Assembly (NCBI RefSeq): GCF_947492965.1
Contig: NZ_CANLOZ010000001.1
Span: forward strand, 931,975-995,974
Source of the DNA: an uncultured Aquimarina sp.
Lineage (GTDB): Bacteria > Bacteroidota > Bacteroidia > Flavobacteriales > Flavobacteriaceae
Direction of reading: 5' to 3'
DNA: 64,000 nucleotides
Shown: positions 2,770 to 64,000 of the stretch, piece after piece
How the letters are laid out: each line of letters begins with the position of its first letter
Numbering within the stretch: position 1 is the stretch's first letter
The notes under the pieces: model-generated
Databases searched by the model: none
The model's input: only the letters and a program-made list of their open reading frames with translations
What the model was told of the DNA's origin: nothing
Position numbers and translations under genes: made by a program

Positions 2770-2856
2770 TTATCTGTATCGTCTTTTAGCATTCCAGATG
2801 TTTCCTTTTGTACTTTTTAATTTGTTTGTGATTTGATTGCTGTCTAAAGTTCTCAT
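2770..2856 (-). CDS. 28-aa cationic peptide copy 1, MRTLDSNQITNKLKSTKGNIWNAKRRYR
   Basis: Hand-translated ATG...TAA. Confidence 0.7.
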   Translation of the reverse strand: MRTLDSNQITNKLKSTKGNIWNAKRRYR

Positions 2857-2890
2857 AATTGATATTGTTTTGAATTGTTATATACTTACT

Positions 2891-2916
2891 AGACAACAAA
2901 ACTTTAATTTTGTTAC
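2891..2916 (-). promoter_or_regulatory. Candidate ECF-sigma-type promoter for the peptide array
   Basis: Minus strand reads GTAAC-N16-TGTCT, 35-60 bp upstream of the first ATG; no TAnnTTTG found nearby. Confidence 0.35.
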
Positions 2917-3138
2917 AGTACTATGTATAAAAAGGTACTATTTTAACATTTTTTAACCAAAATACAGGTGCTTCAGACGTTTTTTAGAAATAAATTAGAG
3001 GTTTAAATGAAAAAAGAGCTACTTTTCCTCAATAAAAATAATTATATATGAAATAAGCCATAACAATAAGATGATACCTGCAGATATGATTAGATGGCGG
3101 TTCGATCTGACCATAAAAAACAATAAAATTATAAACAG

Positions 3139-3438
3139 ATGAAAGATAATTTTAGTAATATAATAAATTCAACTACTCCGGTCCTGATTGACTTTTATGC
3201 AGATTGGTGTGGTCCATGTAAAATGTTAGCTCCTATATTAAAGGAAGTAAAGGAGGAATTAGGAGATTCTATTAAAATTGTAAAAATAGATGTGGACAAA
3301 AATCAAACTTTAGCAGCAAAATATCAGGTGAGAGGAGTTCCAACAATGTTACTCTTTAAAGATGGTAAGCAACTTTGGAGACAATCTGGAGTATTGCAAA
3401 AGCAAAATATTATTTCAATAGTCAAATCTTATACATAA
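3139..3438 (+). CDS. trxA: Thioredoxin
   Basis: DFYADWCGPC active site and VRGVPT cis-Pro loop. Confidence 0.95.
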   Translation: MKDNFSNIINSTTPVLIDFYADWCGPCKMLAPILKEVKEELGDSIKIVKIDVDKNQTLAAKYQVRGVPTMLLFKDGKQLWRQSGVLQKQNIISIVKSYT

Positions 3439-3451
3439 TACTAGTAGTGAT

Positions 3452-60380: not shown

Positions 60381-60758
60381 ATGTCCAGAATTTTAACGAA
60401 ACAAGAGTTGCATAATCTAGCAATGAATATTGTTGGAGAAGATTTAGAGAAGAAAGGTTATGAATTTATTGCTATTAATAGCAAATTAGGGAAGCATCCG
60501 CAGTTCGTATGTATCGATAAATCTAATCAGCGCTATTTTGTAATTGTCAAAGCGATTGCGTATCCAGATAACCCTCATAATTATGATATGATTTGGATGG
60601 AAGCTTTTAAGAAACATGCCAGAGAACAAGAAGCTAAAGTGTTTTATGCTGGGGTGGGATTACAAAACTCGGAAAACCCAAATAAGCCCGTTTTTTTGAA
60701 TGAAGAATATGTGTTAGAATATGCTGGACTGCAAGTTATTGAAACACATCTCAATTAA
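60381..60758 (+). CDS. Conserved hypothetical protein upstream of apbE
   Basis: 125-aa ORF in operon with apbE; no Fe-S or flavin motifs. Confidence 0.75.
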   Translation: MSRILTKQELHNLAMNIVGEDLEKKGYEFIAINSKLGKHPQFVCIDKSNQRYFVIVKAIAYPDNPHNYDMIWMEAFKKHAREQEAKVFYAGVGLQNSENPNKPVFLNEEYVLEYAGLQVIETHLN

Positions 60759-60768
60759 TTTTTTTAGA

Positions 60769-61758
60769 ATGAGAAGCCTTCTTTTTTTATTCCTTTTTAT
60801 AGGTCTATTTTCCTGTAAACAAACTCCAAAAAAAAAATTAAATTATACCAATGGAACTGCCTTTGGAACTACTTTTTCTGTTCAGTTTATAGCTCCTAAA
60901 GAAATTGATCTTTCTGCATCTTATGATAGTATCGTTGCTGTTATCAATACCTCTATGTCAACCTATCAAAAGGATTCTGATATATCTAAAATTAATAGTG
61001 GAGATACTACGATAGTTATTGATAGTCACTTTAAGAAAGTATTTCAAGCATCAAAAAAGATATACAAACAAACAGATGGTGTTTTTGACCCTACTATAGG
61101 CGTTTTAGTAAATGCTTGGGACTTTGGACCAGAAGGGAAAGTAATAGCACTAGATAGTCTTAAAATAGATAGTTTGTTGGTTTCAGTAGGGTTAAATAAG
61201 GTTAGTTTACAAAATGATAAAATTGTAAAACAATACCCTAATACATTTATTGATTTTAATGCTTTGGCAAAAGGATATGCAGTAGATGTTTTTGCCGAGT
61301 TTTTAGAAACTAAAAATATAGAAAACTATTTAGTTGAAATCGGTGGCGAAATTAGAGGTAAAGGAAGTAATTTGATCAAAGAAAAGCCATGGAGAATAGG
61401 AGTAGAAGATCCTAATTTTGATGATACTCAGTCTTATAGTAAAGTAATAACTTTACAAGAAGGAGCTATGGCAACTTCTGGAAGCTATCGTAAGTTTAAA
61501 ATCGACGAAAATGGGAATCGATATGCTCATATAATTAATACTAAAACGGGCTATCCTTCTAAATCAAACGTACTTAGTGTTTCTGTTCTTGCAAAAAGTT
61601 GTATGGAAGCTGACGCATATGCCACAGCTTTAATGTCTATGGGATTAGAAAAATCGAAAGATTTTTTAAGCGCACATTCCGAAATAAAAGTATACTTCAT
61701 TTACGAAAATGATCAAAAAGAAATAACAACACTTGCTGTTAATGGTTTTCCAGATTAA
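60769..61758 (+). CDS. apbE: FAD:protein FMN transferase
   Basis: FSC lipobox; FDPTIG, DFNALAKGY, ATSG, HIINTKTG and ADAYATA motifs. Confidence 0.95.
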   Translation: MRSLLFLFLFIGLFSCKQTPKKKLNYTNGTAFGTTFSVQFIAPKEIDLSASYDSIVAVINTSMSTYQKDSDISKINSGDTTIVIDSHFKKVFQASKKIYKQTDGVFDPTIGVLVNAWDFGPEGKVIALDSLKIDSLLVSVGLNKVSLQNDKIVKQYPNTFIDFNALAKGYAVDVFAEFLETKNIENYLVEIGGEIRGKGSNLIKEKPWRIGVEDPNFDDTQSYSKVITLQEGAMATSGSYRKFKIDENGNRYAHIINTKTGYPSKSNVLSVSVLAKSCMEADAYATALMSMGLEKSKDFLSAHSEIKVYFIYENDQKEITTLAVNGFPD

Positions 61759-61995: not shown

Positions 61996-62598
61996 ATGGG
62001 GCAACATGATGAAAACACTATTTTTCAAGGTATCCGAAATGGAGATCCGCAAGTCTTAAAGAGTTTTTATAACAGAAATTTTACTATTATTCTTAGTTAT
62101 ATTACTCGAAATTCTGGAAATGAGAATGATGCCGAAGACATCTTTCAGGATGCTTTAATTTCCTTATATCAGTTTTTAAAAAAGGAAGATACATTACATT
62201 TGCGGTGTTCGATTCATACCTATTTTTATAGTATCTGTAGAAATTTATGGATTAGTAAATTACGCAGAGCTGGGAAAGTTTCTTGTTGTGGAAAAATCAA
62301 TGAAATTGCATTAGAGTTGGAGCCTTCCATTCTCGAAGATGCAGAGGTAAAAGAACAAGAGCAATTATACCGAAAGCATTTGTTAAGTCTTAATTGTAAG
62401 TGTAAGAATATACTTTTTTTGTTTTTTGAAGGAAAGAGCATGAAAGAAATATCTAAACTTACTAATTATTCTGAAGGATACGTTCGAAAAAGAAAATTCG
62501 AATGTAAAGAATATTTAATTCAATTGATTGAAAATGATCCTTTGTATAAAGAATTGATATTGTCGAGTAGAAGAAATATAAGAAAAAATGTTTCTTAG
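61996..62598 (+). CDS. ECF-family RNA polymerase sigma factor
   Basis: DAEDIFQDA (region 2) and SMKEIS...YVRKRK (region 4.2). Confidence 0.9.
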   Translation: MGQHDENTIFQGIRNGDPQVLKSFYNRNFTIILSYITRNSGNENDAEDIFQDALISLYQFLKKEDTLHLRCSIHTYFYSICRNLWISKLRRAGKVSCCGKINEIALELEPSILEDAEVKEQEQLYRKHLLSLNCKCKNILFLFFEGKSMKEISKLTNYSEGYVRKRKFECKEYLIQLIENDPLYKELILSSRRNIRKNVS

Positions 62599-62609: not shown

Positions 62610-63374
62610 CTATTTCGAACAAACTGGTAGTATTTCTCCAGGAGCAAGACAGTATTTAACTACTTCTTCTTCAGTAAGTCTATTTGTGTAGTCAACTTCT
62701 TCTACTTTAAAACCTATGGATCTTAGTTTATCGAAATAATCTTTACCGTACACTCTTACATGATCGTATTGCCCAAAAATCTTTGCACGTTCTTTTGGAT
62801 CAGTAATACTATTATCTTCGAAGGTGATATCTCTGCTAAGGTCTTGAGGTATTTGTAAAATAGCCATTCCACCTGGCTTAAGTACTCTCAATAATTCCTG
62901 CATAGCTTTGGTGTCATCAGGAATATGTTCTAACACATGATTACAAAAGATAATATCATATTCATTTGAAGCAAAAGGGAGATCACAAATATCTGCCTTA
63001 ACATCTGCAAGTGGTGAGTTTAAGTCTGTAGTAGTGTATTCAAGGTTTTTTAATCTTCTAAACCTTTTATAAAAAGCTTGTTCCGGAGCAAAATGTAAAA
63101 CTTTATGTTTTTTAGTGAAAAAATCGGTTTCATTTTTAAGATATAACCATAATAATCTATGGCGCTCTAATGATAGTGTTGATGGAGAAAGTACATTTTC
63201 TCTTTGGTTACCATATCCATAAGGAAGAAACTTCGAAAAGCTTTTATCGTCAATTGGATCCGTAAAAGTGTTTCCTTTTAGGAAAAAAGAAATGACAGGT
63301 CGAACCAAATAGCTAAGACGAATTAATATAGGTCTTGGTATGGTATTTAATATGAATTTGAAGAGTTTTTTCAT
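62610..63374 (-). CDS. Class I SAM-dependent methyltransferase
   Basis: VLHFAPE, ADICDLPF, CNHVLEH and RVLKPGG motifs; ATG at 63374. Confidence 0.9.
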   Translation of the reverse strand: MKKLFKFILNTIPRPILIRLSYLVRPVISFFLKGNTFTDPIDDKSFSKFLPYGYGNQRENVLSPSTLSLERHRLLWLYLKNETDFFTKKHKVLHFAPEQAFYKRFRRLKNLEYTTTDLNSPLADVKADICDLPFASNEYDIIFCNHVLEHIPDDTKAMQELLRVLKPGGMAILQIPQDLSRDITFEDNSITDPKERAKIFGQYDHVRVYGKDYFDKLRSIGFKVEEVDYTNRLTEEEVVKYCLAPGEILPVCSK

Positions 63375-63387
63375 AAATGTAGAATTA

Positions 63388-63424
63388 CGCAAAGGACACT
63401 AAGAAAACCCAAAGTTTCTCAAAG
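63388..63424. repeat. Left heptamer array flanking GxxExxY
   Basis: cgcaaag-ga-cactaag-aaaa-cccaaag-ttt-ctcaaag. Confidence 0.8.
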
Positions 63425-63425
63425 T

Positions 63426-63797
63426 TTACATTATAAAACGTTTTATTCCATTTTTAAGCAAACTTACATGGAAATTAATAAGAAGTCCAAGTTTATATTC
63501 TCCGAGTTTTAAGTAAGTGAGAATTTGTGCAGAATGAACATCCGTAAAATATTCTACCGTTTTTAATTCTATAACAACTCTGTTTTCTACTAGGATATCA
63601 ATTCGGTAACCTTGGTCCAGTTTAATTTCTTTGTATACTACTGGTAATGGTTTTTCTTTATGGATTTTTAATCCTCTTTTTTTTAATTCATAACACAAAC
63701 ACTCCTGATAAGCAGATTCAAGTAAGCCTGGTCCAAGATTTTTATGAACTTCTATAGCACATCCAATTACAATTTTAGATATTTCGTCTTCTGTCAT
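63426..63797 (-). CDS. GxxExxY protein (PD-(D/E)xK nuclease-like)
   Basis: GPGLLESAY and RIDILVE...IELK motifs. Confidence 0.93.
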   Translation of the reverse strand: MTEDEISKIVIGCAIEVHKNLGPGLLESAYQECLCYELKKRGLKIHKEKPLPVVYKEIKLDQGYRIDILVENRVVIELKTVEYFTDVHSAQILTYLKLGEYKLGLLINFHVSLLKNGIKRFIM

Positions 63798-63801
63798 TCT
63801 T

Positions 63802-63839
63802 CTTGGAGATCCTTCGTGAATTCTTAGTGAATCTTTGTG
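63802..63839. repeat. Right heptamer array, inverted relative to the left
   Basis: cttggag-atc-cttcgtg-aatt-cttagtg-aat-ctttgtg. Confidence 0.8.
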
Positions 63840-63853
63840 AAATAATAAAAAAA

Positions 63854-64000
63854 CTAAACTACCAGTAATTCTTGTCTAAAAGCATCTTCCTCATCAGATT
63901 CAATACCTAAAGCCTGGTAGATATATTTAAATGTAGAAAGTATTTCTGGTTTACCGTCTATAATAGCAACATCATGCTCAAAATGTGCACTTGGTTTTCC
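63854..64000 (-). CDS. map: Methionine aminopeptidase type I, C-terminal 48 aa (truncated by the window edge)
   Basis: Hand translation GKPSAHFEHDVAIIDGKPEILSTF...; SAHFEH metal motif. Confidence 0.9.
   Translation of the reverse strand, partial: GKPSAHFEHDVAIIDGKPEILSTFKYIYQALGIESDEEDAFRQELLVV

Follow-up and report, generated by a model that had tools for sequence, protein, structure and literature searches.

A 123-residue nuclease of the GxxExxY family, encoded in a 64-kb stretch of DNA from an uncultured Aquimarina sp. (64,000 nt; hereafter the window), is framed by two inverted arrays of short phased heptamers and sits in sense between map (methionine aminopeptidase) and a gene for a class I S-adenosylmethionine (SAM) methyltransferase. 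Arrays of the same kind adjoin GxxExxY genes in several phyla and are also dispersed through intergenic DNA with no gene between them. We tentatively propose that the arrays are the DNA recognition sites of the nuclease, the two forming a cognate nuclease-repeat pair that resembles a repetitive extragenic palindromic (REP) sequence with its RAYT, or a homing element, a reading that we place just short of probable. It builds on direct observations: the architecture of the unit and its generality, selection on both gene and heptamers, sense orientation, empty and decayed sites, and one recombination tract centered on the element.

All positions are those of the whole window; an array of CRCNRAG-type heptamers read in the sense of the gene is termed F, and its reverse complement R. 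The GxxExxY (PDDEXK_3) gene occupies 63426–63797 on the minus strand, as defined by its open reading frame (ORF), profile matches, and alignments. The two arms were defined by the sequence itself, an inverted-repeat search, and a pattern scan. The 5′ arm, an F array at 63802–63839 (−), reads CACAAAG-att-CACTAAG-aatt-CACGAAG-gat-CTCCAAG in the gene sense, with its final base 4 nt upstream of the GxxExxY ATG and with the 10-11-10 spacing that is the family consensus. The 3′ arm, an R array at 63388–63424 (−), reads CTTTGAG-aaa-CTTTGGG-tttt-CTTAGTG-tc-CTTTGCG in the gene sense, begins 1 nt past the GxxExxY stop codon, and finishes 13 nt ahead of the methyltransferase ATG.

On the plus strand, the left arm comprises CGCAAAG (63388–63394), CACTAAG (63397–63403), CCCAAAG (63408–63414), and CTCAAAG (63418–63424) at spacings of 9-11-10, and the right arm comprises CTTGGAG (63802–63808), CTTCGTG (63812–63818), CTTAGTG (63823–63829), and CTTTGTG (63833–63839) at 10-11-10. 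The reverse complement of the right arm (CACAAAG/CACTAAG/CACGAAG/CTCCAAG) matches the left arm at 6/7, 7/7, 5/7, and 6/7 positions, with linkers that differ between the arms (GA/AAAA/TTT versus ATT/AATT/GAT). An initial annotation made from the sequence had listed the heptamers, their matches and spacings, the unmatched linkers, and the distances to the stop and start codons, all of which proved exact on re-reading. A repeat search of the window recovers the two arms as an inverted pair (28 nt, 75% complementary). They are the sole chains of at least three CNCNAAG heptamers at 9–11 spacing in the entire 64 kb, and no chain of at least three phased heptamers appeared in 300 dinucleotide-preserving shuffles, placing the heptamers far above the background frequency that the annotation had named as a ground for refutation.

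The same framing recurs around related genes. Relatives at 54–93% identity were fetched as 80 loci from Bacteroidota, Acidobacteriota, Verrucomicrobiota, Chloroflexota, and other groups, and flanks were counted on 78 of them. Upstream flanks of 63 nt contain three or more CRCNRAG heptamers at 50% of these loci, and downstream flanks contain as many of the complement at 49%, against a background of 0.6% in 4,656 windows; at least two heptamers are present in some flank at 72 of the 78. The inverted arrays that the annotation proposed to look for at other GxxExxY genes are thus present. Arrays abut the ORF, the median gap being 4 nt on the ATG side and 3 nt on the stop-codon side. An IMG/VR relative at 49% identity is framed in the same way, as is a relative of cyanobacterial type whose gene lies in a type I restriction-modification operon. 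Viewed from the arrays, ORFs tightly flanked on both sides are GxxExxY genes in 21 of 24 cases.

The heptamer varies by lineage (CACAAAG, CACAGAG, CGCAGAG, AGCGGAG, and CGCCGAG) and tracks the protein clade at equal GC content (0.55–0.68), CGCCGAG accompanying proteins of 140–146 residues and CACAGAG those of 120–130 residues. The heptamer period ranges from 8 to 11 among relatives, with other subfamilies at 8–9; phasing at one helical turn, as originally proposed, is therefore a property of the Aquimarina-type subfamily and not of the whole system. In lineages that use Shine-Dalgarno (SD) sequences (L042, L047, L041; Larkinella), the innermost heptamer is AGCGGAG(G) and lies 3–6 nt before the ATG, where it also supplies the GGAG/GGAGG of a ribosome-binding site; R heptamers, as its complement, resemble anti-SD sequence.

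Array topology also varies among relatives. The CGCCGAG subfamily includes arrays in direct orientation, R-gene-R in L049, L050, and L068 and F-gene-F in L061 and L073, whose arms are unable to pair. The direct arrays of L049 include identical outer flanks (gaattagctttt...), and in some members of this subfamily an array extends into the called ORF at its 3′ end. Loci with R upstream and F downstream, L053 and L066, represent a gene between two elements. In both of these Acidobacteriota loci, an unrelated small ORF lies in its own F...R pair immediately upstream of the GxxExxY gene (L053, 717–1181; L066, 2659–2925), and neither small ORF has a Pfam match. The L053 product carries a PD...EAK motif, resembles another PD-(D/E)xK nuclease, and is among the 3 of 24 tightly flanked ORFs that are not GxxExxY.

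Arrays are more often found without the gene than with it. A search of metagenome contigs by array pattern alone returned 120 loci, just 4 of which have a GxxExxY homolog nearby. The gene-less arrays are intergenic and occur as lone modules, as compact F-short loop-R palindromes, and as back-to-back R-F pairs. The module is ~37 nt long and mostly holds exactly four heptamers, most commonly at 10-11-10 spacing, with the consensus TTa-CACaGAG-nTn-CACAGAG-aAga-CACaGAG-nTn-CACAGAG (36 arrays). In the window, the outer flank TTA beside the outermost heptamer (63385–63387, no strand assigned) belongs to this family consensus (TTa-CACAGAG). Loop sizes between F and R are bimodal, 6–116 nt or 331–484 nt, indicating that the loop is either almost empty or filled by one ORF. 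In non-Aquimarina lineages, additional arrays of the same heptamer type occur near the gene at 1.37 per 10 kb. The annotation's view of the unit as the gene plus its ends stands for Aquimarina, where 133 kb of DNA holds no further array, and needs revision elsewhere, where the array is a dispersed and mostly gene-less module.

Compact array units are tandemly amplified beside the gene in L009, L010, and L013, and tandem F4-R4 units of ~110 nt around an identical protein differ in copy number by sample (L343 versus L346). The array stretches of these two loci, which lie in a type I restriction-modification operon, span 2840–2990 and 3390–3560 in L343 and 2760–2990 and 3390–3660 in L346. Lone arrays display no strand bias relative to neighboring genes, which suggests a DNA-level feature. 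Many metagenome contigs stop 80–300 nt upstream of the GxxExxY gene, at arrays (L337–L342, L327–L334), as expected if the arrays are assembly-breaking repeats. On viral contigs, a pattern of three CACAAAG heptamers gave 120 loci with no GxxExxY homolog and few inverted pairs, and a profile scan gave one GxxExxY relative; array framing as a phage feature was rejected because these viral scans yielded no association.

The 123-residue protein matches TIGR04256 (GxxExxY; E = 3e-46, 156.4 bits, curated cut-off 35) and PF13366 (PDDEXK_3; E = 2e-44, 151.4 bits, curated cut-off 22). Its putative catalytic residues are E27 (in GLLESAY), D67, and E77-x-K79, accompanied by Q91-xxx-Y95. In alignments of 29 and 55 sequences, E27, Y30, D67, K79, and Y95 never vary, and E77 and Q91 vary rarely if at all. 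An AlphaFold model from a shallow alignment reached a predicted local distance difference test (pLDDT) score of 68.9 and made the fold search uninformative; a model from a deeper alignment, with a pLDDT of 95.7, was used instead. Its top match in the PDB is Cas4 SSO0001 (probability 0.94–0.98), all matches being weak (E of ~3e-3 or higher, TM-scores of 0.4–0.5). Further weak matches include a Spirosoma restriction-endonuclease-like protein, splicing endonucleases, Bax1, lambda exonuclease, AdnAB, and Hjc. Cas4 profile matches are likewise weak (E of ~1e-3 to 1e-4), the Pfam Cas_Cas4 match falls below its cut-off, and a PDB sequence search with the protein found no related solved structure.

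The catalytic residues and the predicted fold together place the protein in the PD-(D/E)xK superfamily, catalysis itself being putative, and the modeled Aquimarina protein is a minimal RecB/Cas4-type PD-(D/E)xK core with no iron-sulfur (Fe-S) module. The PD-(D/E)xK-like motif noted in the annotation is thereby upheld as an intact site with weak Cas4-like fold matches, and the family function is equally as stated there: a 2012 survey of the superfamily enters PDDEXK_3 as "Unknown", with multiple horizontal transfers (PMC3424549). Clustering at 50% identity (E ≤ 1e-3) divides the GxxExxY family into 23,119 clusters. Tandem two-domain GxxExxY proteins of 266–295 residues also occur (representatives P0361–P0371 and others). 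These natural fusions suggest that the single-domain protein works as a dimer.

An intact element lies between map and the methyltransferase gene in nine genomes, namely the window and eight loci from genomes or metagenome-assembled genomes (L001–L007, L067). The adjacency of these two genes in other flavobacteria, which the annotation had stated, was recovered in related genomes. In the window, the insertion site is bounded by the stop codon of map at 63860–63862 (−), located from the sequence and orthologous loci, and by the start codon of the methyltransferase gene at 63372–63374 (−), located from the sequence, its ORF, and profile matches. The upstream neighbor, of which the window contains the 3′ end, is identified as map by orthologous loci with PF00557 and the same C-terminal sequence. 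On the other side, a 200-residue protein resembling extracytoplasmic function (ECF) factors, with sigma-70 region 2, stands between the methyltransferase and ApbE (61996–62598 and 60721–61758, both +). In A. macrocephali and A. gracilis, ApbE follows the methyltransferase immediately, so the neighborhood is also variable within Aquimarina.

Among the Aquimarina orthologs, the GxxExxY gene has a mean ratio of nonsynonymous to synonymous divergence (dN/dS) of 0.03 at a mean dS of 1.4, with a third-codon-position identity of 0.64. Heptamer positions 1, 3, 5, 6, and 7 are 100% conserved in both arms, and positions 2 and 4 and most linker positions are variable. For most genome pairs, the dS of the element equals that of its neighbors, which indicates vertical descent. 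Judged by these divergences, the Aquimarina copy has been passed on vertically, with strong purifying selection acting on it, and the unit is old and selected. In four metagenome runs, its left arm occurs as one copy at a likeness of at least 80%.

Empty and decayed states exist at the same site. A. amphilecti and Flavobacterium arcticum have an empty site, with map-to-methyltransferase gaps of 12 and 5 nt, and one environmental contig joins 63354 to 63866 and skips the element; these are the empty alleles that the annotation had asked for. Apart from this one variant, metagenome contigs bore out the sequence of the window. A. gracilis retains "tttattCACAAC-ttt-CTTTCGTGtaatt", apparently just the two outermost heptamers, strain AD10 has a 9-bp mini-palindrome at the site, and the decayed copy of A. 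muelleri consists of the last ~75 nt of the ORF and an intact R array. One comparison departs from shared divergence. Between L006 and L007/L067, the element has a dS of 0.20–0.24, compared with 1.2 for map and 1.3–1.6 for the methyltransferase gene. The similar tract measures ~600 nt (locus ~2840–3440), from ~100 nt upstream of the element to ~30 nt downstream, with an identity of 0.93–0.97 inside and ~0.8 outside. It is a recombination tract centered on the element, left by either horizontal exchange of the element or ordinary recombination.

Across the related loci, the gene is inserted in sense. The upstream neighbor is co-oriented with the GxxExxY gene in 66/72 loci (median gap 64 nt) and the downstream neighbor in 62/72 (median gap 51 nt), gaps that barely exceed the arrays themselves. 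Host operons include map to methyltransferase, TetR-OEP-[GxxExxY]-MFP-RND, and hsdM-YhcG (DUF1016)-[GxxExxY]-hsdS-hsdR. Co-orientation with both neighbors implies that the gene behaves as a promoterless cassette expressed by read-through. Since an F...R pair reads the same after reverse complementation, nothing can be concluded from which way the gene points within it; the bias relative to neighbors implies selection for expression, because the arms are unable to set orientation.

In the mechanism that we propose, a two-part system would combine the minimal Cas4/RecB-like PD-(D/E)xK nuclease GxxExxY with a ~37-nt module of four heptamers, TTA-CRCNRAG-N3-CRCNRAG-N4-CRCNRAG-N3-CRCNRAG, present as inverted pairs. 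The ORF would form a promoterless sense cassette exactly between the inverted modules and would owe its transcription to read-through within the host operon, which in the window runs from map to the methyltransferase gene. Each heptamer would provide a sequence-specific contact for one nuclease subunit, with bases 1, 3, 5, 6, and 7 read and bases 2 and 4 not, and such contacts would make the arrays the cognate DNA sites of the enzyme. Two outcomes can be envisaged. The nuclease may disperse or maintain the arrays, much like a RAYT and its REPs. Alternatively, it may break palindromes of gene-less arrays, whereupon repair would place a copy of the gene in the loop, in the manner of homing. Gene-less modules would then be the more numerous, non-autonomous partners.

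Several points weigh against arrays as nuclease sites. Array binding, cleavage, and any mobility of the GxxExxY system are what we infer, and in a nuclease of 123 residues no separate domain for binding a 7-bp DNA site is obvious. The match of heptamer type to protein clade is based on few clades, and the canonical F-gene-R topology is present in just 24–34 of 78 loci, alongside R-gene-F, R-gene-R, and F-gene-F. With no further arrays in the 133 kb of Aquimarina DNA and with inheritance alongside its neighbors, this genus gives no sign of array dispersal in the RAYT manner. Identical GxxExxY proteins on 20–60 contigs always share one genomic context and so give no evidence of recent copying to new sites, and the single tract of L006, L007, and L067 could be ordinary homologous recombination. 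No target-site duplication was recognized between filled and empty sites, a weak test because the empty sites are possibly scars. Of the mobile element envisaged in the annotation, the inverted ends and empty sites are borne out; neither a target duplication nor identical proteins in different contexts were found, and, with vertical inheritance in Aquimarina, its mobility is putative.

The annotation had also raised pairing of the arms in mRNA, like an intervening sequence (IVS). Under this explanation, which we consider unlikely, the arrays pair in the map-GxxExxY-methyltransferase transcript and the stem is cut by an RNase III-like activity or sequesters the start region, so that the nuclease mRNA is released or throttled with the host operon still working. 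Pairing is thermodynamically possible: both arms are paired in the minimum free energy and centroid folds of the 471-nt transcript. Co-orientation with both neighbors means that the arrays are transcribed in sense with the gene, the arrays adjoin the start and stop codons, and the innermost heptamer often supplies GGAG/GGAGG before the ATG in SD lineages (L042, L047). However, the z-score of the whole transcript is just −1.57, and a helix would have to tolerate positions 2 and 4 drifting freely within each 7-bp segment. Lone arrays lack the strand preference of an RNA feature, and the R-gene-R and F-gene-F loci can form no such stem. A search of RNA sequencing runs located the sequence in none of them.

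Pairing counts, made heptamer by heptamer, reveal no base-pair covariation between the arms. Across 30 F4...R4 pairs drawn from a wide range of taxa, the arms are no more complementary in register than out of register, and F=G/R=U wobbles (11 and 8) do not outnumber F=A/R=C mismatches (11 and 13). Among the Aquimarina orthologs, 6.22 of 7 positions pair in register, 6.15 out of register, and 6.12 across genomes, and changes such as CACTAAG to CTCCAAG in one arm are uncompensated in the other. The arms are complementary because both are built from one consensus motif, and five fixed plus two free positions per heptamer are the pattern expected of sequence-specific protein contact. An Rfam search with the window region and 13 loci gave no match at gathering score, with chance-level matches at E up to 10. 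At the sequence level, the evidence points less to a selected RNA helix than to a role in DNA-protein (or nucleic acid-protein) contact.

We also regard as improbable that the arrays are cis-regulatory or insulating modules only. They would be operators or untranslated-region signals for a host factor or for GxxExxY as an autoregulator, and the promoterless cassette would be tolerated in operons; the nuclease would find its substrate elsewhere, for instance in foreign DNA or repair intermediates, and gene-less arrays would be relics or independent host repeats. Such a role would suit the Aquimarina arrays, which occur only at the gene and are conserved over a dS above 1 at a fixed locus. It would also suit sense insertion in operons, including those for type I restriction-modification and resistance-nodulation-division (RND) efflux, and a strength of purifying selection that resembles that on a host-beneficial gene. 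It leaves unexplained the dispersed, palindromic, and tandemly amplified gene-less modules of many lineages, the concentration of 21/24 tightly flanked ORFs in one family, the bimodal loop sizes, and the tracking of protein clade by heptamer type.

A possible −7 box inside the gene, with raised synonymous conservation at the 3′ end of the ORF, likewise speaks for regulation. TAAGTTTG at 63459–63466 (−), a tentative part of the unit, is the single match to the Bacteroidetes −7 consensus TAnnTTTG and lies ~85 nt upstream of the methyltransferase ATG, where chance would give ~1 match per 800 nt. Synonymous-codon identity among the Aquimarina orthologs is 0.70 and 0.69–0.79 at the ORF ends and 0.44–0.61 in the middle, and is raised in codons 101–123, exactly the stretch that the decayed A. 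muelleri copy retains with its R array. From its position and conservation, TAAGTTTG may be an internal promoter on which the methyltransferase gene came to depend.

Chance resemblance, or an ordinary promoter or terminator in which the heptamers are meaningless, has negligible probability and is already refuted by the flank, selection, and shuffle results: TTTG in CTTTGTG does resemble the Bacteroidetes −33/−7 core and the region is AT-rich, but shuffled sequence yields no such chains, other phyla show the pattern with GC-rich heptamers devoid of TTTG, and the core positions are invariant at saturated synonymous divergence. Sigma-70 promoters and intrinsic terminators were rejected as candidates, with sigma-70-like hits at shuffle level and no terminator-like site. 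A Bacteroidetes promoter was rejected as a general explanation on account of the GC-rich heptamers.

GxxExxY/PDDEXK_3 is a very large family of >20,000 clusters in several phyla with no known function, and its members lie almost invariably beside a defined, selected repeat module, which offers a concrete candidate substrate for the family. The arrays, scattered between genes in Bacteroidota, Acidobacteriota, Verrucomicrobiota, cyanobacteria, and other groups, make up a new repeat class; they seem often to coincide with the ends of assembly contigs and may influence operon expression. The open-access literature, with subscription journals outside its scope, yielded no description of these flanks, and database curator notes may mention repeats. 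Should the nuclease mobilize these arrays or home into them, the pair would be a compact, sequence-programmed nuclease and site.

Among known nucleases, the GxxExxY protein is closest to the Cas4/RecB family, with which it shares the PD-(D/E)xK core and its E, D, ExK, and QxxxY motifs; Cas4 is its best fold and profile match. It differs from Cas4 in having no four-cysteine Fe-S module (the conserved cysteines are just C13 and C33) and in being ~80 residues shorter than the Cas4 structure, and no cas genes were present in any of the neighborhoods examined around GxxExxY.

The intervening sequences of 23S rRNA that carry an ORF, as in Leptospira and Coxiella (S23p/PF05635 family), likewise place a small ORF between inverted repeats in a host transcript with arms predicted to pair. 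The GxxExxY unit differs in its host, a protein-coding operon, in its ORF family, and in a stem with no covariation. Transposon ends can bear multiple subterminal sites, as in Tn7, with its TnsB sites and the PD-(D/E)xK nuclease TnsA, in Mu, in CACTA and hAT elements, and in miniature inverted-repeat transposable element (MITE) derivatives. The GxxExxY arrays are similar in forming terminal inverted repeats from several phased copies of a short motif, in short gene-less derivatives that outnumber the gene-bearing copies, as with MITEs, and in a PD-(D/E)xK nuclease, an enzyme type possible in a transposition machine. In contrast to transposons, the unit has no DDE or other strand-transfer enzyme, its cargo is the 123-residue ORF alone, and neither a recognized target-site duplication nor multi-copy identical elements were found on the contigs examined.

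Free-standing or intron-borne homing endonuclease genes, such as the T4 seg and mob genes, offer a closer parallel. Here too, a small nuclease gene lies between conserved host genes with neither disrupted, and intact, decayed, and empty states occur at one fixed site, resembling a homing cycle. A single recombination tract is centered on the element, the gene splits a palindromic site that is found uninterrupted elsewhere, and the homing endonuclease I-Bth0305I is a weak match in the fold search. Unlike in homing, where the target is a unique gene sequence, a dispersed repeat would be targeted here, with cleavage an inferred step, and a purely selfish homing gene would not usually show long vertical inheritance at a dN/dS of 0.03.

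The REP/REPIN elements and their RAYT (REP-associated tyrosine transposase) of the HUH/IS200 family are likewise among the closest counterparts of this system. In both, a conserved nuclease gene lies between inverted copies of a short repeat, the repeat is also dispersed in intergenic DNA as palindromic pairs and tandem clusters, like bacterial interspersed mosaic elements (BIMEs), and the gene is vertically inherited under purifying selection, with repeats far outnumbering genes. The gene-flanking repeats are the same as the dispersed ones in many lineages, yet the 133 kb of Aquimarina DNA holds no dispersed copies. The enzymes differ, GxxExxY being a Cas4-like PD-(D/E)xK protein and not an HUH/Y1 enzyme. 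A REP is marked by a GTAG- or CGTC-tagged hairpin (PMC3733652), whereas the GxxExxY repeat consists of four phased heptamers with unconserved linkers, and its gene is a promoterless sense cassette in operons. That these features add up to a second, independently evolved REP/RAYT-type system, built on a Cas4-like nuclease, dispersed gene-less palindromes, and an ORF homing into palindrome loops, is possible though doubtful; in that event, a function could be assigned to a family of >20,000 clusters. If the nuclease does mobilize the arrays or home into them, the REP/RAYT lifestyle would have been invented a second time by a different enzyme.

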